64,000 bases of DNA from Somniosus microcephalus (lineage: Eukaryota), in the NCBI GenBank assembly GCA_052327205.1, contig CM126211.1, positions 8,246,001-8,310,000 of the forward strand, given 5' to 3'. Below the pieces are notes generated by a model. The model was given only the letters and a program-made list of their open reading frames with translations. It was not told the origin of the DNA and ran no database searches. The position numbers and the translations under genes were made by a program. Of this stretch, positions 16,312 to 24,400 are shown one piece after another (position 1 is the stretch's first letter; each line of letters starts with the position of its first letter).

Positions 16312-16962
<651 letters not shown>

Positions 16963-17081
16963 TAAAAAAGATTTCCAAGGATGATACCAGAATTGAGAGG
17001 TTATCACCATCAGGAAAGTCTGAACAGGCGGGGGCTCGTTTCTCTAGAAAAGGGAAGGCTGAGGGGTGACCTGATAGAGGG

Positions 17082-17295
17082 TGATGCGCCATCAATTACT
17101 CATAAAAGACTCAGAGTTAGAAGAGTAACTAAAGGCTTTTATTAACAACAGAATGGAGGTCTGCCTCGCGTGGTCGACCAGTCCAGGATACAAAGGGCTG
17201 GGGAGCAGTCACCTTTATACTAGGACTTGTGGGAGGAGTCAGCCGAGGCATGTCCAGGCATGTACACAGTGGAATACAAACAGTGGTTTACCACA
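17082..17295 (-). repeat. 3' LTR (214 bp), preceded by a polypurine tract (about 17296-17310)
   Basis: Sense strand reads AAACAAGGGGTGAA|TGTGGTAAAC...CATCA. Confidence 0.95.
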
Positions 17296-19766
17296 TTCAC
17301 CCCTTGTTTAAAATTGAGTCCAGCGGGGTGAAGTGTATTAAAAGTTAGTGTATTGGAGTCTCTCCGGAGGTCTTGTCTGCCGCTGTGATCGGCGTGGCGA
17401 CGGCAGGGGTAGTGGAGCTTCCGGCGTCGAGTCCTGCGTGGGCTGTGGCACAGGCGTGTCGTCCTCGTAGATGTCGAGCGGGTCGCGGGGCCCAGGCCTG
17501 CCGTCTGCTGGGGCTGGATATCGGATCGTGGGGGGGGGGGTGGTAGTGGGTAGTGGGTTACTGCGGCCCCCGAGGGTGCAAGGTCTCTTATGGAGACTGT
17601 GTCCTCCCGCCCGTCCGGGTATGCGATGTAAGCATACTGGGGGTTGGCGTGGAGGAGGTCGACCCTCTCGACCAGGGGGTCCGTTTTATGGGTCCTCACG
17701 TGTCTTCTCAGTAGGACCGGCCCTGGGGACGTCAGCCATGGCGGTAGCGATGTGGACTTCCTTGGGAAGACAAACATTTTCTCATGAGGGGTGGCGTTAG
17801 TGGCAGTGCAGAGCAGTGACCGAATAGAGTGGAGCGCATCGGGGAGCACATCCTGCCAGCGGGAGGTTGGAAGGCCCCTAGACTTTAAGGCTAGCAGGGC
17901 GGCCTTCCAAACTGTCGCATTTTCTCTTTCCACCTGTCCGTTCCCCCGGGGGTTGTAACTGGTGGTCCTGCTTGTGGCAATACCCCTAGTTAGCAGGTAC
18001 TGACGGAGTTCGTCGCTCATAAACGATGAGCCCCGGTCGCTATGGATATAGCTGGGGAAGCCGAACAGGGTGAAGAGGTTGTTCAGACATTTAATGACCG
18101 TGGCACTGGTCATGTCCGGGCAGGGGAAGGCAAACGGGAAACGGGAGTACTCATCAATAATATTGAGGAAGTACACATTGCGGTCGGAGGAGGGAAGAGG
18201 CCCTTTAAAATCAACGCTCAGGCGCTCGAAGGGGCGAGTGGCTTTTATTAGGTGGGCCCTGTCTGGTCTATAAAAGTGCGGTTTGCACTCAGCGCAGACT
18301 TGGCAGTTCCTGGTCATGGTCCTGACCTCCTCAATAGAGTAAGGCAGGTTGCGGGCCTTGATGAAGTGGAAGAACCTGGTGACCCCCGGGTGGCAGAGGT
18401 CATTGTGGAGGGCCCGCAGTCTATCGATCTGCGCGCTGGCGCAGGTGCCACGCGATAGCGCATCTGGGGGTTCATTTAGCTTCCCGGGCCGGTACAAGAT
18501 CCCGTAGTTGTAGGTGGAAAGTTCGATTCTCCACCTCAAGATCTTGTCATTTTTGATTTTGCCCCTCTGCTTGTTGTTAAACATAAAAGCAACTGAACGC
18601 TGGTCAGTGAGCAGGGTAAATCGTTTTCCGGCCAGGTAGTGCCTCCAATGACGCACAGCCTCCACAATCGCCTGGGCCTCCTTCTCAACAGCGGAGTGTC
18701 TGGTCTCCGGGCCTTGGAGGGTTCGTGAAAAGAAGGCCACGGGTCTCCCCGCCTGATTGAGGGTAGCGGCCAGGGCAAAGTCGGACGCGTCGCTTTCCAC
18801 CTGGAAGGGGATGGATTCGTCCACTGCGTGCATGGTGGCTTTGGCAATGTCCTCCTTGATACGGTGGAAGGCTAAGCGGGCCTCTGCCGTCAAGGGAAAA
18901 GAGGTGGACTTGATCAGCGGATGGGCCTTGTCCGCATAGTAGGGGACCCACTGGGCATAATAGGAGAAAAACCCTAGGCACCTCTTCAGGGCCTTGAGGC
19001 AGTGGGGCAGTGGAAGTTCCATAAGGGGACGCATCCGGTCGGGGTCGGGGCCGATGACTCCGTGTTCCACAACACAGCCAAGGATGGCGAGGCGGTTTGT
19101 GCGGAATATGCACTTCTCCTTGTTATATGTCAGGTTTAGGAGTTGGGCGGTGCGGAGGAATTTTTCGAGGTTTGCGTCATGGTCCTGCAAGTCACGGCCG
19201 CAGATGGTCACATTGTCCAGATATGGGAAAGTGGCCTGCAACGCATTTTGATCTACCATCCGGTCCATCTCCCTTTGGAAGACGGAGACCCCGTTGGTGA
19301 CGCCAAAGGGAACCCTAAGGAAGTGATAGAGGCGGCCGTTTGCCTCAAAGGCAGTGTACTGGCGGTCCTCAGGGCGGATGGGGAGCTGGTGGTACGCTGA
19401 TTTCAGGTCAATGGTTGAGAAGACGCGGTACTGCGCGATCTGGTTGACCATATCAGCTATACGGGGGAGTGGGTAGGCGTCCAGCAGGGTGTAGTGATTT
19501 ATTGTCTGGCTGTAGTCGATGACCAGGCGCTGCTTCTCGCCGGTCCTAACGACCACAACCTGGGCTCGCCAGGGGCTGGTGCTGCCCTCAATAATCCCTT
19601 CTTTCAGGAGCCGCTCCACTTCGGTTTTAATGAAAACCCTGTCCCCGGCACTGTATCGCCTGCTCTTTGTGGCGATGGGCTTACAGTCGGGGGTGAGGTT
19701 AGCAAACAGTGGTGGGGGGGGGTGACTCTGAGTGTGGAGAGATTGCACCTGGTGCGCGGCGGGCAA
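17220..19766 (-). CDS. Gypsy pol (RT-RNase H-integrase)
   Basis: RT motifs SPW, DLKSAYHQ, PFG, YLDN; RNase H DAS...EKEA...TDQ...DALSR; integrase HHCC (HNDLCH...CQVC) and D-D-E (VDF, SDRG, VERE). Confidence 0.95.
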   Translation of the reverse strand: MPAAHQVQSLHTQSHPPPPLFANLTPDCKPIATKSRRYSAGDRVFIKTEVERLLKEGIIEGSTSPWRAQVVVVRTGEKQRLVIDYSQTINHYTLLDAYPLPRIADMVNQIAQYRVFSTIDLKSAYHQLPIRPEDRQYTAFEANGRLYHFLRVPFGVTNGVSVFQREMDRMVDQNALQATFPYLDNVTICGRDLQDHDANLEKFLRTAQLLNLTYNKEKCIFRTNRLAILGCVVEHGVIGPDPDRMRPLMELPLPHCLKALKRCLGFFSYYAQWVPYYADKAHPLIKSTSFPLTAEARLAFHRIKEDIAKATMHAVDESIPFQVESDASDFALAATLNQAGRPVAFFSRTLQGPETRHSAVEKEAQAIVEAVRHWRHYLAGKRFTLLTDQRSVAFMFNNKQRGKIKNDKILRWRIELSTYNYGILYRPGKLNEPPDALSRGTCASAQIDRLRALHNDLCHPGVTRFFHFIKARNLPYSIEEVRTMTRNCQVCAECKPHFYRPDRAHLIKATRPFERLSVDFKGPLPSSDRNVYFLNIIDEYSRFPFAFPCPDMTSATVIKCLNNLFTLFGFPSYIHSDRGSSFMSDELRQYLLTRGIATSRTTSYNPRGNGQVERENATVWKAALLALKSRGLPTSRWQDVLPDALHSIRSLLCTATNATPHEKMFVFPRKSTSLPPWLTSPGPVLLRRHVRTHKTDPLVERVDLLHANPQYAYIAYPDGREDTVSIRDLAPSGAAVTHYPLPPPPPRSDIQPQQTAGLGPATRSTSTRTTRLCHSPRRTRRRKLHYPCRRHADHSGRQDLRRDSNTLTFNTLHPAGLNFKQGVNVVNHCLYSTVYMPGHASADSSHKS

Positions 19767-21172
19767 TTTGGAAGCTGCTGGCTGCGGACTGTGAGTGGGG
19801 GTAGGGGTCCACCGTACGCCATCGTAACACTTTTAAGGTGGCATTGAAAATCTAACCCCAGCAGGACGGCAGCGCAGAGGTCAGGCAGGACCAGAAGTTT
19901 AAAATGATCGTACATGGTCCCGTCTACTACGAGTGTCACCACGCAGTAGCCGCCGATGTCCGCCGACTGGGACTCGGAGGCCATAGAAATCCGCTGTTGC
20001 GCAGGCAGGACTGGGAGAGAGCAACGCCACACTGTGTCGGGGTGGATGAAGCTCTCCGTGCTCCCAGAGTCAAAAAGGCAGATTGTATCGTGACCATTTA
20101 CCTTAATGTCCATTGTGGAACTGGCCAGTTGGTGCGGTCTCGCTTGGTCCAGTGTAACGGATGCCAGCGTAGGGGTCAGTGTGTCGCTGCGGGTATCAGA
20201 TGAGGCGGTGTCGGGGGCCTGCTGCGTCCCGGCTGTCGTCCAAGATGGCGGCGTCCATGATCCCCATGTGGCTGGAGGCGTCCAAAATGGCTGCTGTACC
20301 GGTGATTTGCACATGGCCGGGGAGGTCCAAGATGGCGGCCCGCATGGCCCACACGCGGCGCTGCTGGGGTTCGGGGTGGCTTTGGCCCTGCAGACGCTAG
20401 CGTAGTGTCCCTTCTTCCCGCAGCCCGAGCAGATCGCGTTTTTCGCCGGGCAGCGCGCTCTGGGGTGTTTTGCCTGGCCACAGAAGTAGCATTTCTGGCC
20501 TTGGGGCACTGCTGTCTGGCCTTGGGACACTGCTGCAGTAGTTGGGCCGTTGTTGGGGTGTGGCTGGGGTGGCACGGCGCTATGAGGCGGTCCTACCGTG
20601 TCCCAGGCTGTCATTCCCCGCGGCGTCCACGGTGCAGAGGAGTAGGCATCCATGCCCTGGTAGGCTGCATCCAACGATAGTGCGAGTTCAGAGGCCTTGT
20701 TGAGGTCGAGGTTACTCTGCTCCAACAGTCGCTGTCGGGTGTAATTGGATCTGTGGCCCGCTACAAAAGCGTCCCGGATAAGTTCCTCTGTGTACACGGC
20801 GGCCTTTACATCCTTACAACCACAGGCCCGGCCAAGCACAGACAGTGCCTGAAGGTATTCCACGGTCGATTCCCCAGGTTGTTGTTTACGACTCCCCAGG
20901 AGGTGCCTGGCGTACACTTCATTCACTGGGCGCGTGTACTGGTCCTTGAGGAGCTTGATGGCGTCCGCGTACGAGGTCGCGTCTTGGATGACCGAGTACA
21001 CTCGGTGGTTCACTTTGGAGGTCAGGACATCCAGTTTGTCCTCGTCCGATTTGATTGCTTCGGAGGCGGTCAGGAATTTTTCGAAACACTTAAGCCAGTG
21101 AGTAAACTTGGTGGATGAGTCCGCCTCCCGATGATCTAAGTCCAGGCATGCTGGTGTGAGGATCTTCTCCAT
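19604..21172 (-). CDS. Gypsy gag-protease ORF (522 aa)
   Basis: Two CCHC knuckles (CYFCGQAKHPRARC, CSGCGKKGHYASVC) and aspartic protease motif LFDSGS; shifts out of frame at a C9 run (19714-19722). Confidence 0.92.
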   Translation of the reverse strand: MEKILTPACLDLDHREADSSTKFTHWLKCFEKFLTASEAIKSDEDKLDVLTSKVNHRVYSVIQDATSYADAIKLLKDQYTRPVNEVYARHLLGSRKQQPGESTVEYLQALSVLGRACGCKDVKAAVYTEELIRDAFVAGHRSNYTRQRLLEQSNLDLNKASELALSLDAAYQGMDAYSSAPWTPRGMTAWDTVGPPHSAVPPQPHPNNGPTTAAVSQGQTAVPQGQKCYFCGQAKHPRARCPAKNAICSGCGKKGHYASVCRAKATPNPSSAACGPCGPPSWTSPAMCKSPVQQPFWTPPATWGSWTPPSWTTAGTQQAPDTASSDTRSDTLTPTLASVTLDQARPHQLASSTMDIKVNGHDTICLFDSGSTESFIHPDTVWRCSLPVLPAQQRISMASESQSADIGGYCVVTLVVDGTMYDHFKLLVLPDLCAAVLLGLDFQCHLKSVTMAYGGPLPPLTVRSQQLPNCPPRTRCNLSTLRVTPPHHCLLTSPPTVSPSPQRAGDTVPGTGFSLKPKWSGS

Positions 21173-21195
21173 TATAAAAATGTTGTTAATAAAAT

Positions 21196-21430
21196 TGATG
21201 CGCTATCAATTACTCATAAAAGACTGAGAGTTAGAAGAGTAACTAAAGGCTTTTATTAACAACAGAATGGAGGTCTGCCTCGCGTGGTCGACCGGTCCAG
21301 GATACCAAGGGCTGGGGAGCAGTCACCTTTATACTAGGACCTGTGGGAGGAGTCAGCCGAGGCATGTCCAGGCATGTACACAGTGGAATACAAACAGGAC
21401 AAACAGGAATACAAACAGTGGTTTACCACA
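21196..21430 (-). repeat. 5' LTR (235 bp) with TATAAA box and AATAAA
   Basis: Matches 17082-17295 except for about 5 substitutions and a 21-bp internal duplication (ggaatacaaacag repeat). Confidence 0.95.
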
Positions 21431-24400
21431 GAGGGCTTTAAAATTATGAAGGGGTGTGATAGGGTAGACATAGAGAAGATGTTTCCACTTGTGGGAGAGA
21501 CTAAAACTAGGGACCATAAATATAAGATAGTCACTAATAAATCCAATAGGGAATTCAGGAGAAACTTCTCTACCCAGAGAGTGGTGAGAATGTGGAACTC
21601 GCTACCACAGGGAGTGGTTGAGGTGAATAGCAGAGATACATTTAAAGAGAAGCTCGATAAACACATGAGGGAGAAAGGAATAGAAGGATATGCTGATAGG
21701 GTGAGATGAGGAGGGGAGGGAGGAGGCTCGTGTGGAGCAGAAACACCGGCATGGACCAGTTGGGCCGAATGGCCTGTTTCTGTGCTGTACATTCAATGTC
21801 ATTCGTGTATATGGCTCAGTAAAGCAATAGCTTTCTTTAAGTATAGGGCGGCAGGGGAGTGGAACTAATTGGACAATTCTTTCAAAGAGCCGGCACAGGC
21901 ACGATGGGCCGAATGGCCTCCTATTAAAAGAAAGACTTACATTTATATAGTGCCTTCCACCACCTCAGGATGTCTCAAAGTGCTTTGAAGCCAATGAAGT
22001 ACTTTTTGAAGTGTAGTCACTGTTGTAATGTGGGAAACGCAGCAGCCAATTTGCGCTCAGCAAGCTCCCACAAACAGTAATGGTGATGATAACTAGATCA
22101 TCTGCTTTTGTTATGTTGGTTGAGGGATAAATATTGGCCCCAGGGCACTGGGGGAGAACTCCCCCCCTGCTCTTTTTCGAAATAGTGCCATGGGATCTTT
22201 TACGCTCACCTGAGAGAGCAGACGGGGCCTCGTTTTAACGTCTCATCTGAACGACGGCACCTCCGACAGTGCAGCACTCCCTCAGTACTGCACTGGGAGT
22301 GTCAGGTTAGATTTATGTGCTCAAGTCTCTGGACTGGGACTTGAACCCACGACCTTCTGACTCAGAGGTGAGGGTGCTGCCCACTGAGCCACAGCGGACA
22401 AAAATGGAACGTACAGCACAGAAACTGGCCATTTGGCCCAACCAGTCTGTATTGGTGTTTAGACTCCACACGAATCTCCTCGACATTCCATCTGCCTCAT
22501 CTCAGCCTTTCAGCGTATCTTTCAATTCCCTTTTATTTCGCGTACTCATCCAGCTTCCCCTTAAATGTATCGATACTATTCGCCTCAACCACTCCCTGTG
22601 GTAGCGAGTTCCACATTCTCACCACTCTCTGGGTAAAGAAGTTTCTCCTGAATTCCCGATTGGATTTATTAGTAACGATCTTATATTTATAACAACAACA
22701 ACTTGTATTTATATAGCGCCTTTAACGTAGTAAAACATCCTAAGCAGTATCATAAGACAAATATTTGACACCGAGCCACATAAGGAGAAATTAGGGCAGG
22801 TGACCAAAAGCTTGGTTTTAAGGAGCGTCTTAAAGGAGGAAAGAGGGGCAGAGAGGTTTAGGCAGGCAATTCCAGAGCTTAGGGCCGAGGCAACAGAAGG
22901 CACGGCCACCAATGGTTGAGTGATTATAATCAGGGATGCTCAAGAGGGCAGAATTGGAGGAGCGCAAGATATCTCTGGGGGGGGTGGGGGGGTTGTGGGG
23001 CTGGAGGAGATTACAGAGATAGGGAGGGGCGAGGCCATGGAGGGATTTGAAAACAAGGATGAGAATTTTGAAATCAAGGCGCTGCTTAACTGAGAGCCAA
23101 TGTAGGCCAGCGAGCACAGGGGGGGGTGATGGGTGAACAGAACTCGGTGCGAGTTAGGACACAGGCAGCCGAGTTTTGGATGAGGATTTCAGCAGCAGAT
23201 GAGCCCCTAGTTTTGGATTCTCCCACAAGTACGTGCTGTATCATTCTGTGATTCTTTGATAAGAAAGCAACGCACCTCGGCTGAGAAGCAATGTTCGAGG
23301 TACCAGTGAAAGGAATGAGAAGCATGGATAGCGTCTTAAACTGAGCTGCAGGAACTGCCATAATACTGGGGGAAAAGCTTTCAAAATTCACTAAACTCTG
23401 AATGTAATATGTGAAGGAGCAGAGGAGCAGGAATGGCTTTTTTCTGCATGAGCTACCTCGTCAATAGCCTTGTGCAGTGACACCGCCATGATAATTGGAC
23501 TGTCATTTTTAACGAGCTGATAGAATAAAGTTAGTGTGAAGCTCAGTGGAAACGCAGTACTAGAGCAACGGAGCCAAGCAATCCGCAAAAACCTCTTTTG
23601 ATAAGTGTTCCAGATTTTTTTTCTGAACTCATTCAATATGCTCGCCAAGGCTTGTTCGGCAGCCCCCCTCCCCCTTCACCCCCCAAACCCACGACCTCTT
23701 CCACCTAGAATATGCTTTGGTCAGGGTTATGCACAGTTCATGATTCTATGAACTATTTAACAGAATTTTTAACAACACTGGTTTAAATGGTTCCTGAGGA
23801 CACGGTTTTAGGCGCGAGTAACTGCAAATAAGAATCACACTTCCACAGTTGCCATGGTATCAGTCAACATCCTGGTACTATTTTATCACAAGACAGCCAG
23901 CAGGTATGCATGACTGCTCTCTTGACTAGTTTCTGGTACTTTATGGCAGTGTGACCACACATTGGACCAATCAATAACAAGTCTTCTTCGGCAGCACCTC
24001 CCAAACCCGCGACCTCTTCCACCTAGAAGGACAAGGGCAGCAGGCGCATGGGAACACCGCCACCTCCAAGTTCCCCTCCAATTCACACACCATCCTGACT
24101 TGGAAATATATCGGCCGTTCCTTCATCGTCGCTGGGTCAAAATCCTGGAACTCCCTCCCTAACAGCGCTGTGGGAGCACCTTCACCACACGGACTGCAGT
24201 GGTTCAAGGCAGCGGATCACCACCACCTTCTCAAGGGGCAACTTGGGATGGGCAATAAATGCTGGCATTGCCAGCGACGCCCACATCCCGTGGATGAATT
24301 TAAAAAAAAAATTATATCGGAAATCCAGACAACAAATTGGATGTAACAAAGGTTTCAGAGATGTATTAGGGGGTTAGACTATAATGGGTAATTTAAGGAC

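Follow-up and report, generated by a model that had tools for sequence, protein, structure and literature searches.

A Ty3/Gypsy clade of sharks and marine relatives with a putative primer-binding site complementary to its own LTR: covariation evidence for probable self-priming

The DNA analyzed here, 64,000 nt of Somniosus microcephalus (GCA_052327205.1, contig CM126211.1, positions 8,246,001 to 8,310,000; hereafter the window, in whose numbering positions are given), contains a complete Ty3/Gypsy element on the minus strand (17082-21430), flanked by a 5-bp target duplication and devoid of a chromodomain, in which the sequence next to the 5′ LTR is complementary to a segment of the LTR itself. 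Covariation between the two strands and a fixed register to the LTR end strongly support the view that reverse transcription is started by the element's own RNA rather than by a tRNA, in a Tf1-like manner, and we regard such self-priming as quite probable. The features of the element are as follows.

21431..21435, minus strand: target-site duplication CCCTC, 5′ copy, read from the sequence
21196..21430, minus strand: 5′ LTR, 235 bp, TG...CA, delimited by the second LTR and the flanking duplication
21328..21333, minus strand: candidate TATA box TATAAA, with an inferred start near 21303 (TATA kept in own-genome families B and E; ramp in RNA run X7)
21251..21264, minus strand: LTR arm, the predicted self-primer, with 3′ end at 21251 and predicted cut at 21251/21250 (14/14 Watson-Crick pairs with 21194-21181; covariation)
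21252..21257, minus strand: AATAAA, candidate poly(A) signal within the arm; no other occurs in the LTR stretch 21196-21400
21200..21250, minus strand: predicted inner stem formed by 21250-21237 and 21215-21200, which would stack on the duplex directly behind the predicted cut (fold; similar stem in relatives)
21195, minus strand: one-base spacer from LTR end to primer site (matches duplication-verified LTR ends; 16 of 17 paired families)
21181..21194, minus strand: putative primer-binding site complementary to the element's own LTR (sequence, shuffles, covariation)
19604..21172, minus strand: gag-protease frame with two CCHC knuckles (translation) and aspartyl protease (Pfam)
17220..19832, minus strand: pol frame with RT, RNase H and integrase in Gypsy order, no chromodomain (Pfam)
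17296..17309, minus strand: polypurine tract, whose final AA directly precedes the TG of the 3′ LTR (AA likewise in relatives)
17082..17295, minus strand: 3′ LTR, 214 bp, with a second arm copy and no adjoining primer site (from the sequence)
17077..17081, minus strand: target-site duplication CCCTC, 3′ copy, read from the sequence

Assignment to Ty3/Gypsy is based on the order PR-RT-RNase H-IN, the TG...CA LTRs, the polypurine tract and the target duplication; Pfam recognizes protease, RT, RNase H and integrase, and the best relative of solved structure is Ty3 Gag-Pol (E 1e-57). No chromodomain is matched by Pfam in the element and none is listed for 120 homologues. An Rfam search over 17000-21500 gave 0 matches at E up to 1. 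The window copy has a frame break between protease and RT. Its LTRs are 97.5% identical over 202 nt, and their ends are fixed independently by the second LTR and by CCCTC duplicated on both sides; the 5′ LTR is 21 bp longer than the 3′ LTR, with a local duplication near its start (21398-21430). The gag N-terminus is 100% identical in 150 of 150 scored genomic matches, and the family is large and young. The closest named homologues come from rays and sharks (78-83% pol identity), followed by those of a sea anemone and many metagenome proteins (58-67%); the search of viral contigs yielded no relative, and the protein Atlas search returned generic gag clusters only. One shark protein named as a lipid transporter (P0126) has this gag and an RT domain and is probably a gene model with an insertion.

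The first-pass annotation, made from the letters of the window, had claimed that the element lacks a tRNA primer-binding site and that its leader is complementary to the LTR segment holding the poly(A) signal, and both claims hold. Read on the minus strand, the 5′ LTR ends CATCA at 21196 and is followed by a leader of 23 nt (21195-21173) and the gag ATG at 21172; no TGG occurs in the leader near the LTR end, where a tRNA-primed element would have one 0-5 nt after the LTR. Positions 21194-21181 are the exact reverse complement of 21264-21251, with AATAAA at 21257-21252, and the complement exists at the 5′ end only, as had been stated, the second arm in the 3′ LTR having no primer site beside it. 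Self-primed elements are recognized in sequence by at least 10 bases complementary to the 5′ LTR and starting 0-5 nt after it; here there are 14 nt at an offset of 1. A match of at least 14 nt was obtained in 0 of 2000 leader shuffles and at 0 of 423 other places in the window, the best being 12 in both tests. The pairing is real, and it is not a product of chance.

Folding of the 5′ region, also proposed in the first-pass annotation, gives a z-score of -3.16 for 151 nt, and whichever of four start sites is assumed, the predicted pair probability of the 14-bp duplex is 0.95-0.99 at both 37 and 15 °C. A second hairpin had been described across the U5/leader junction; its 7-bp version is present as letters (21211-21193), but its predicted probability is no more than 0.001 once the 14-bp duplex can form, and the 8-bp version relies on a base from the 3′ LTR, which the leader does not follow. 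Predicted pairing in the window copy reaches the gag AUG, a property that carries no signal in the clade (positions 15-39, p = 0.053; positions 19-43, p = 0.80).

Compensatory change between leader and LTR, the principal check that the first-pass annotation had suggested, is found both within the family and across families. Within the family, copies were selected by gag (30) or solely by base 13 of the site (30 with A and 30 with G), and the arm was read afterwards. An arm G is paired with a site C in 28 of the 30 gag-picked copies; the arm has T in 29 of 30 copies with A in the site, and C in 28 of 28 scored copies with G in the site, as well as, by eye, in two more that the script had skipped. 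One pair therefore occurs in three Watson-Crick forms (G-C, U-A and C-G) across three subfamilies, for which exact junction counts in the genome are 1879, 2155 and 1591 (about 5,600). T in the site is restricted to 6 junctions, 5 of them in a single local cluster; the three examined have C in the arm, which is a mismatch, and this form did not spread. The three subfamilies are told apart by 20 columns in an alignment of 74 copies; of these columns just two fall within the 14-mers, and they are the partner columns. It should be noted that the three-state pair represents two evolutionary events, not thousands, and it would agree with selection for the pairing as well as with a primer that is copied into the site. 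Ty3, according to the available text of PMC7472051, does not copy its primer, which would favor selection if the present clade behaves alike. The pair may thus serve as a natural test between a site inherited from the RNA, as described there for Ty3 (PMC7472051), and one copied from the primer, as in retroviruses.

Two side observations were made on these copies. A sister family is present among the site-A loci (L202, L205 and L211), sharing the LTR end and 12 primer-site bases, with 13 contiguous pairs and a gag that starts with a short repeated peptide extension. At one locus among L214-L243 the sequence around the junction is perfectly complementary over 49 nt, the pattern expected of an LTR inverted head to head.

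The comparison across families drew on 93 loci from metagenomes and MAGs, of which 31 have a match to the gag N-terminus and most others are fragments, together with 40 loci of the element's own genome and 20 longer stretches; at an 80% gag threshold, 20 families had enough upstream DNA (L039 and L043 were dropped for having too little). At least 11 contiguous pairs are present in at least one copy of 17 of these 20 families, with Watson-Crick pairs only in 16 and one G-U in L073, and two further families recognized by LTR detection have 14 and 12, giving 19 of 22 scorable families with 11-18 contiguous pairs, in letters that differ between families. No duplex was found in the other three (L090, L099 and L102a), which look degraded or truncated. 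In a blind test with one representative per family and a fixed 45-nt leader, own pairs reach 12 nt in 13 of 19 families, versus 1 of 342 swaps. In register, positions 1-12 of 16 families comprise 190 Watson-Crick pairs out of 192, where one copy per family was chosen for pairing and positions 1-11 are 16/16 by construction; with partners swapped, the mean is 7.5 of 12, and none of 240 combinations attains 12 of 12. In three more distant Gypsy loci (31-34% pol identity), which probably represent one family, the site is of the TGG type and self-complementarity is just 5-7 nt; a quick tree sets them apart from the clade on a long branch (support 100), a thin control of three loci in a tree built without the window copy, L117, L118, L179 or any chromovirus sequence. 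Judged from these alignments, the pairing is a real feature of the whole clade. Gypsy elements of this kind also occur in bacterial genome bins (L111-L123), and two proteins named as bacterial integrases (P0013 and P0042) belong here; host DNA in the bins is the likely source.

Besides its letters, the duplex has a constant position. The LTR ends, as set by the second LTR and the target duplication, are followed by one spacer base and then by TTT, and the duplex begins 1 nt from the LTR end in 16 of 17 families (two in L055, and also two in L061), while the loop between arm and site varies from 23 to 65 nt, a combination that points to the geometry of a primer site. A C stands directly after the arm in 14 of 16 families, the base after the arm makes a Watson-Crick pair with the spacer in 0 of 16, and the polypurine tracts end in AA before TG. 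Right after the arm a stem is predicted, with a mean pairing of its first four bases of 0.69 in 16 families (above 0.5 in 13), compared with 0.44 after a full shuffle of the loop and 0.38 with those bases fixed and the loop shuffled.

In the mechanism that we propose, the RNA would fold to bring the arm onto the primer site, RNase H would, as in Tf1, nick it just 3′ of the arm between AAA and GCC, at the foot of the predicted U5 stem, and the resulting 3′ end would be extended through U5. Tf1 likewise has an RT with RNase H and a U5 stem beside its cut, the stem being a predicted one in the present element. By analogy with retroviral end formation, the two-base overhang would consist of one spacer base and one retained primer A, mirroring the AA left by the polypurine tract. 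Both priming and cleavage are proposed from the sequence and the predicted fold; they appear likely, with an RNase H domain present in the element. The first-pass annotation had also considered poly(A)-type cleavage as the source of the primer. The poly(A) nuclease cuts about 10-30 nt after the hexamer and would therefore leave an unpaired 3′ end, which makes this source unlikely. With the primer ending at the hexamer, a poly(A) cut 10-30 nt farther on would instead leave just enough repeat for strand transfer. A primer made by splicing was considered as well, since many arms have AG after a T-rich tract, and was rejected: the AG and the 1-3 preceding bases are paired, and no such joint appears in the RNA reads.

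Priming by a tRNA was assessed against 16 distinct host genes (Lys, Cys, Ile, Gly, Arg and Ser; 4 groups of loci), a partial comparison as the Rfam tRNA search gave almost only tRNA-Cys; the best contiguous match of the leader is 6 nt and internal. The one candidate with some resemblance is the anticodon arm of host tRNA-Ile(AAU), for whose motif there are 146 genomic matches and which pairs with 10 of the 14 site bases, 6 of them contiguous (9, by eye, in a few of the listed variants); a fragment of it could prime the site much as half-tRNA-Ile priming is described for Bianca copia elements (PMC6317226). Its duplex, however, has -2.9 to -3.0 kcal/mol against -12.7 for the LTR arm, and its register would begin 2 nt too far from the LTR end. 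Above all, the site follows the arm in its letters through three states and 19 families, which argues against any fixed tRNA and makes the tRNA-Ile fragment a scarcely credible primer. The genome also has tRNA-Cys genes in tandem at about 1.59-kb spacing (G000:C24:42905000-43160000).

In another reading, the arm of the 3′ repeat, belonging to the same RNA or to a co-packaged one, would prime the site in place of the 5′ copy. The arm is identical in both LTRs and finishes with a run of three or four A's at the candidate poly(A) signal; at one locus (L178) the arms of both LTRs agree with each other but the site is that of a different subfamily, an expected outcome of recombination between co-packaged RNAs. 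Two points speak against this reading: the 5′ arm lies just 23-65 nt away and is predicted to occupy the site with a probability of 0.95-0.99, and the recurring stem within the loop fits a local fold; the literature searched contains no precedent for a 3′-arm primer. We consider it very doubtful and retain the 5′ arm as the probable primer.

Self-priming from the 5′ arm may take two forms, depending on the start of the transcript. If transcription starts upstream of the arm, near 21303, the primer would be internal, as the first-pass annotation supposed in placing the partner inside R rather than at the cap; if it starts in or at the arm, the primer would be the first 11-14 bases of the RNA, a strict Tf1 type. 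TATAAA starts at 21333, 69 nt before the arm (about 65 in the first-pass annotation), and in three of four families scored from the element's own genome it precedes the end of the arm by 82, 85 and 102 nt, whereas most relatives of invertebrate type have no TATA-like motif upstream, which would suit a start at the arm. So would the initiator-like G at position 10 (14 of 16 families) and A at position 11 (10 of 16). The pairing, however, extends beyond 11 nt: pair 12 is kept in 15 of 16 families and pair 13, which also covaries within the family, in 13 of 16, and the last base paired at the outer end is in most cases T, which is poorly suited as a first transcribed base. Own partners pair better than swapped ones over positions 12-19 (permutation p < 0.0001) and weakly over 15-24 (p = 0.02), and the loss of any pairing signal past position 19 speaks again for the strict form.

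RNA runs X7 and X8 come from a related organism, and their reads mix thousands of copies. In X7, with the usual stranded library assumed, the sense class climbs before the arm (78 reads at 21298-21303, 170 at 21262-21267) as the antisense class declines; the ramp begins at about 21297, and polymorphisms cluster at 21300-21308. Run X8 is ambiguous, and in neither run was a sharp start or end called in the 3′ half of the LTR. Pairing beyond 11 nt, the position of the TATA box and the X7 ramp point faintly to a partner inside R, and a primer internal to the transcript, unlike that of Tf1, is in our estimate a little better than an even prospect; the strict Tf1 form, itself a variant of self-priming, seems rather unlikely. 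Two further features of these data may be mentioned. In U3 (21300-21400) antisense-class reads exceed the sense class two- to threefold in X7 and X8, and one contig of run X1 skips 111 nt (21270-21382) with GT..AG on the plus strand, antisense to the element.

The overlap of the arm with a polyadenylation signal had led the first-pass annotation to suggest that the duplex silences the 5′ poly(A) site, and for the window element this is what folding predicts: at 37 °C the probability that the hexamer is unpaired is 0.01 at the 5′ end but 0.86-0.88 at the 3′ end. The same duplex would thus hide the 5′ hexamer as a side benefit. Hiding the signal could even be its sole function, as in the polyA hairpin of HIV-1 (PMC2645353), with priming left to something else. 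TAAA is present in the arm of 15 of 16 families, but a canonical hexamer (AATAAA or ATTAAA), which is held in the stem of the window element, is found in 9 of 16; the other 7 arms have GTTAAA, TTTAAA, GATAAA, GGTAAA or AATTAA and keep the duplex nevertheless, as does L061, which has none of these. Masking does not need a partner one base from the LTR end, and the leader, just 15-38 nt long in most families, has no room for another primer site. At 15 °C, moreover, the 3′ hexamer is predicted to be mostly closed too (0.18 unpaired) in RNA running through the LTR end, and 66 and 218 reads do run past that end into varied flanks, as host read-through would, with no poly(A) ends among the read ends listed for the runs of the related organism. 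A duplex that serves masking alone is improbable, whereas masking as a second role, one that is not conserved, is plausible on these predictions.

To our knowledge, self-priming has been proven only for Tf1 and is usually tied to chromoviruses. The literature, in the text available, links it to Tf1/sushi elements, Tcn1 and TAR (PMC3601003, PMC6317226, PMC4600332, PMC8556966, PMC3286476, PMC7175516, PMC6934838, PMC2864245, PMC6238403, PMC7472051), with Tf1 as the precedent (PMC7175516, PMC4600332). As in Tf1/Tf2 of Schizosaccharomyces pombe, Tj1 of S. japonicus and the Tf1/sushi chromoviruses, a primer site complementary to the LTR, with a core of about 11-14 nt, lies beside the 5′ LTR in place of a tRNA site (for Tf1, PMC7175516, PMC4600332). 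Unlike Tf1/sushi elements, the present ones have no chromodomain, a gag with two CCHC knuckles, LTRs of 214-235 bp and an arm ending in a poly(A)-signal-like TAAA; the primer of Tf1 is described as bases 1-11 of the transcript, whereas here it is probably internal. Plant Tcn1 (Gypsy) and TAR (copia) were predicted to be self-primed by the same rule of at least 10 bases 0-5 nt after the LTR (PMC6317226), but belong to other lineages and hosts, and the available text of that source mentions no overlap with a poly(A) signal for them. Short LTRs, a 5-bp duplication, mostly one long frame and marine animal hosts are shared with the Mag lineage and the Cigr-1 clade (PMC3286476, PMC6238403); mosquito Mag elements, in contrast, are reported to use tRNA-Leu, -Ser or -Arg (PMC3286476). 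The AAUAAA within a 5′ RNA structure recalls the polyA hairpin of HIV-1 (PMC2645353). That hairpin is present in both repeats and the HIV-1 primer is a tRNA, whereas here the partner strand is the primer site and exists at the 5′ end only.

Searches for the RT motif in the supplements of PMC6238403 and PMC8556966 gave no match, and a term search of PMC2774666 found nothing. No description of self-priming in this clade was found in the literature searched, whose coverage excluded subscription journals and Repbase Reports. The size of the element presumably fits that of Cigr-1 of Ciona, which, like the MolGy clade, was compared by description only. Repbase reportedly lists self-primed Gypsy families of a sea anemone and a sea urchin, without a chromodomain, in which the 5′ end of the internal region pairs with the LTR, and these may be the present clade. 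If so, the basic observation is already on record as annotation, without a covariation test or the question of an internal primer. The new elements here would be the three-state pair, the fixed register, the limitation of masking to part of the clade and a first hint of an internal primer.

If a second Gypsy clade is self-primed, one that numbers thousands of young copies in a vertebrate and has marine metagenome relatives, priming without a tRNA would be common among animals. Such elements are overlooked by annotation tools built to expect a tRNA site. They would presumably also escape tRNA-fragment silencing, which is aimed at the primer site (PMC7472051). For an internal primer, the RNA would in addition have to be cut within its length, leaving behind a long fragment with the cap, a step not known for Tf1. 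It is intriguing to hypothesize, tentatively and with less than even confidence, that this widespread animal Gypsy clade came to prime without a tRNA independently of Tf1, using a primer that is excised within the repeat, some 50 nt after the cap, and ends exactly at the hexamer, so that one duplex of 12-18 bp would make the primer, fix the cDNA end, hide the 5′ signal and leave a 10-30 nt handle for strand transfer.

Two tandem arrays elsewhere in the window complete the description: a short one with units of about 48 bp lies just past the 3′ LTR (16580-16900), and a G-rich 56-bp unit forms an array of about 79 copies from 40535 to about 46000.
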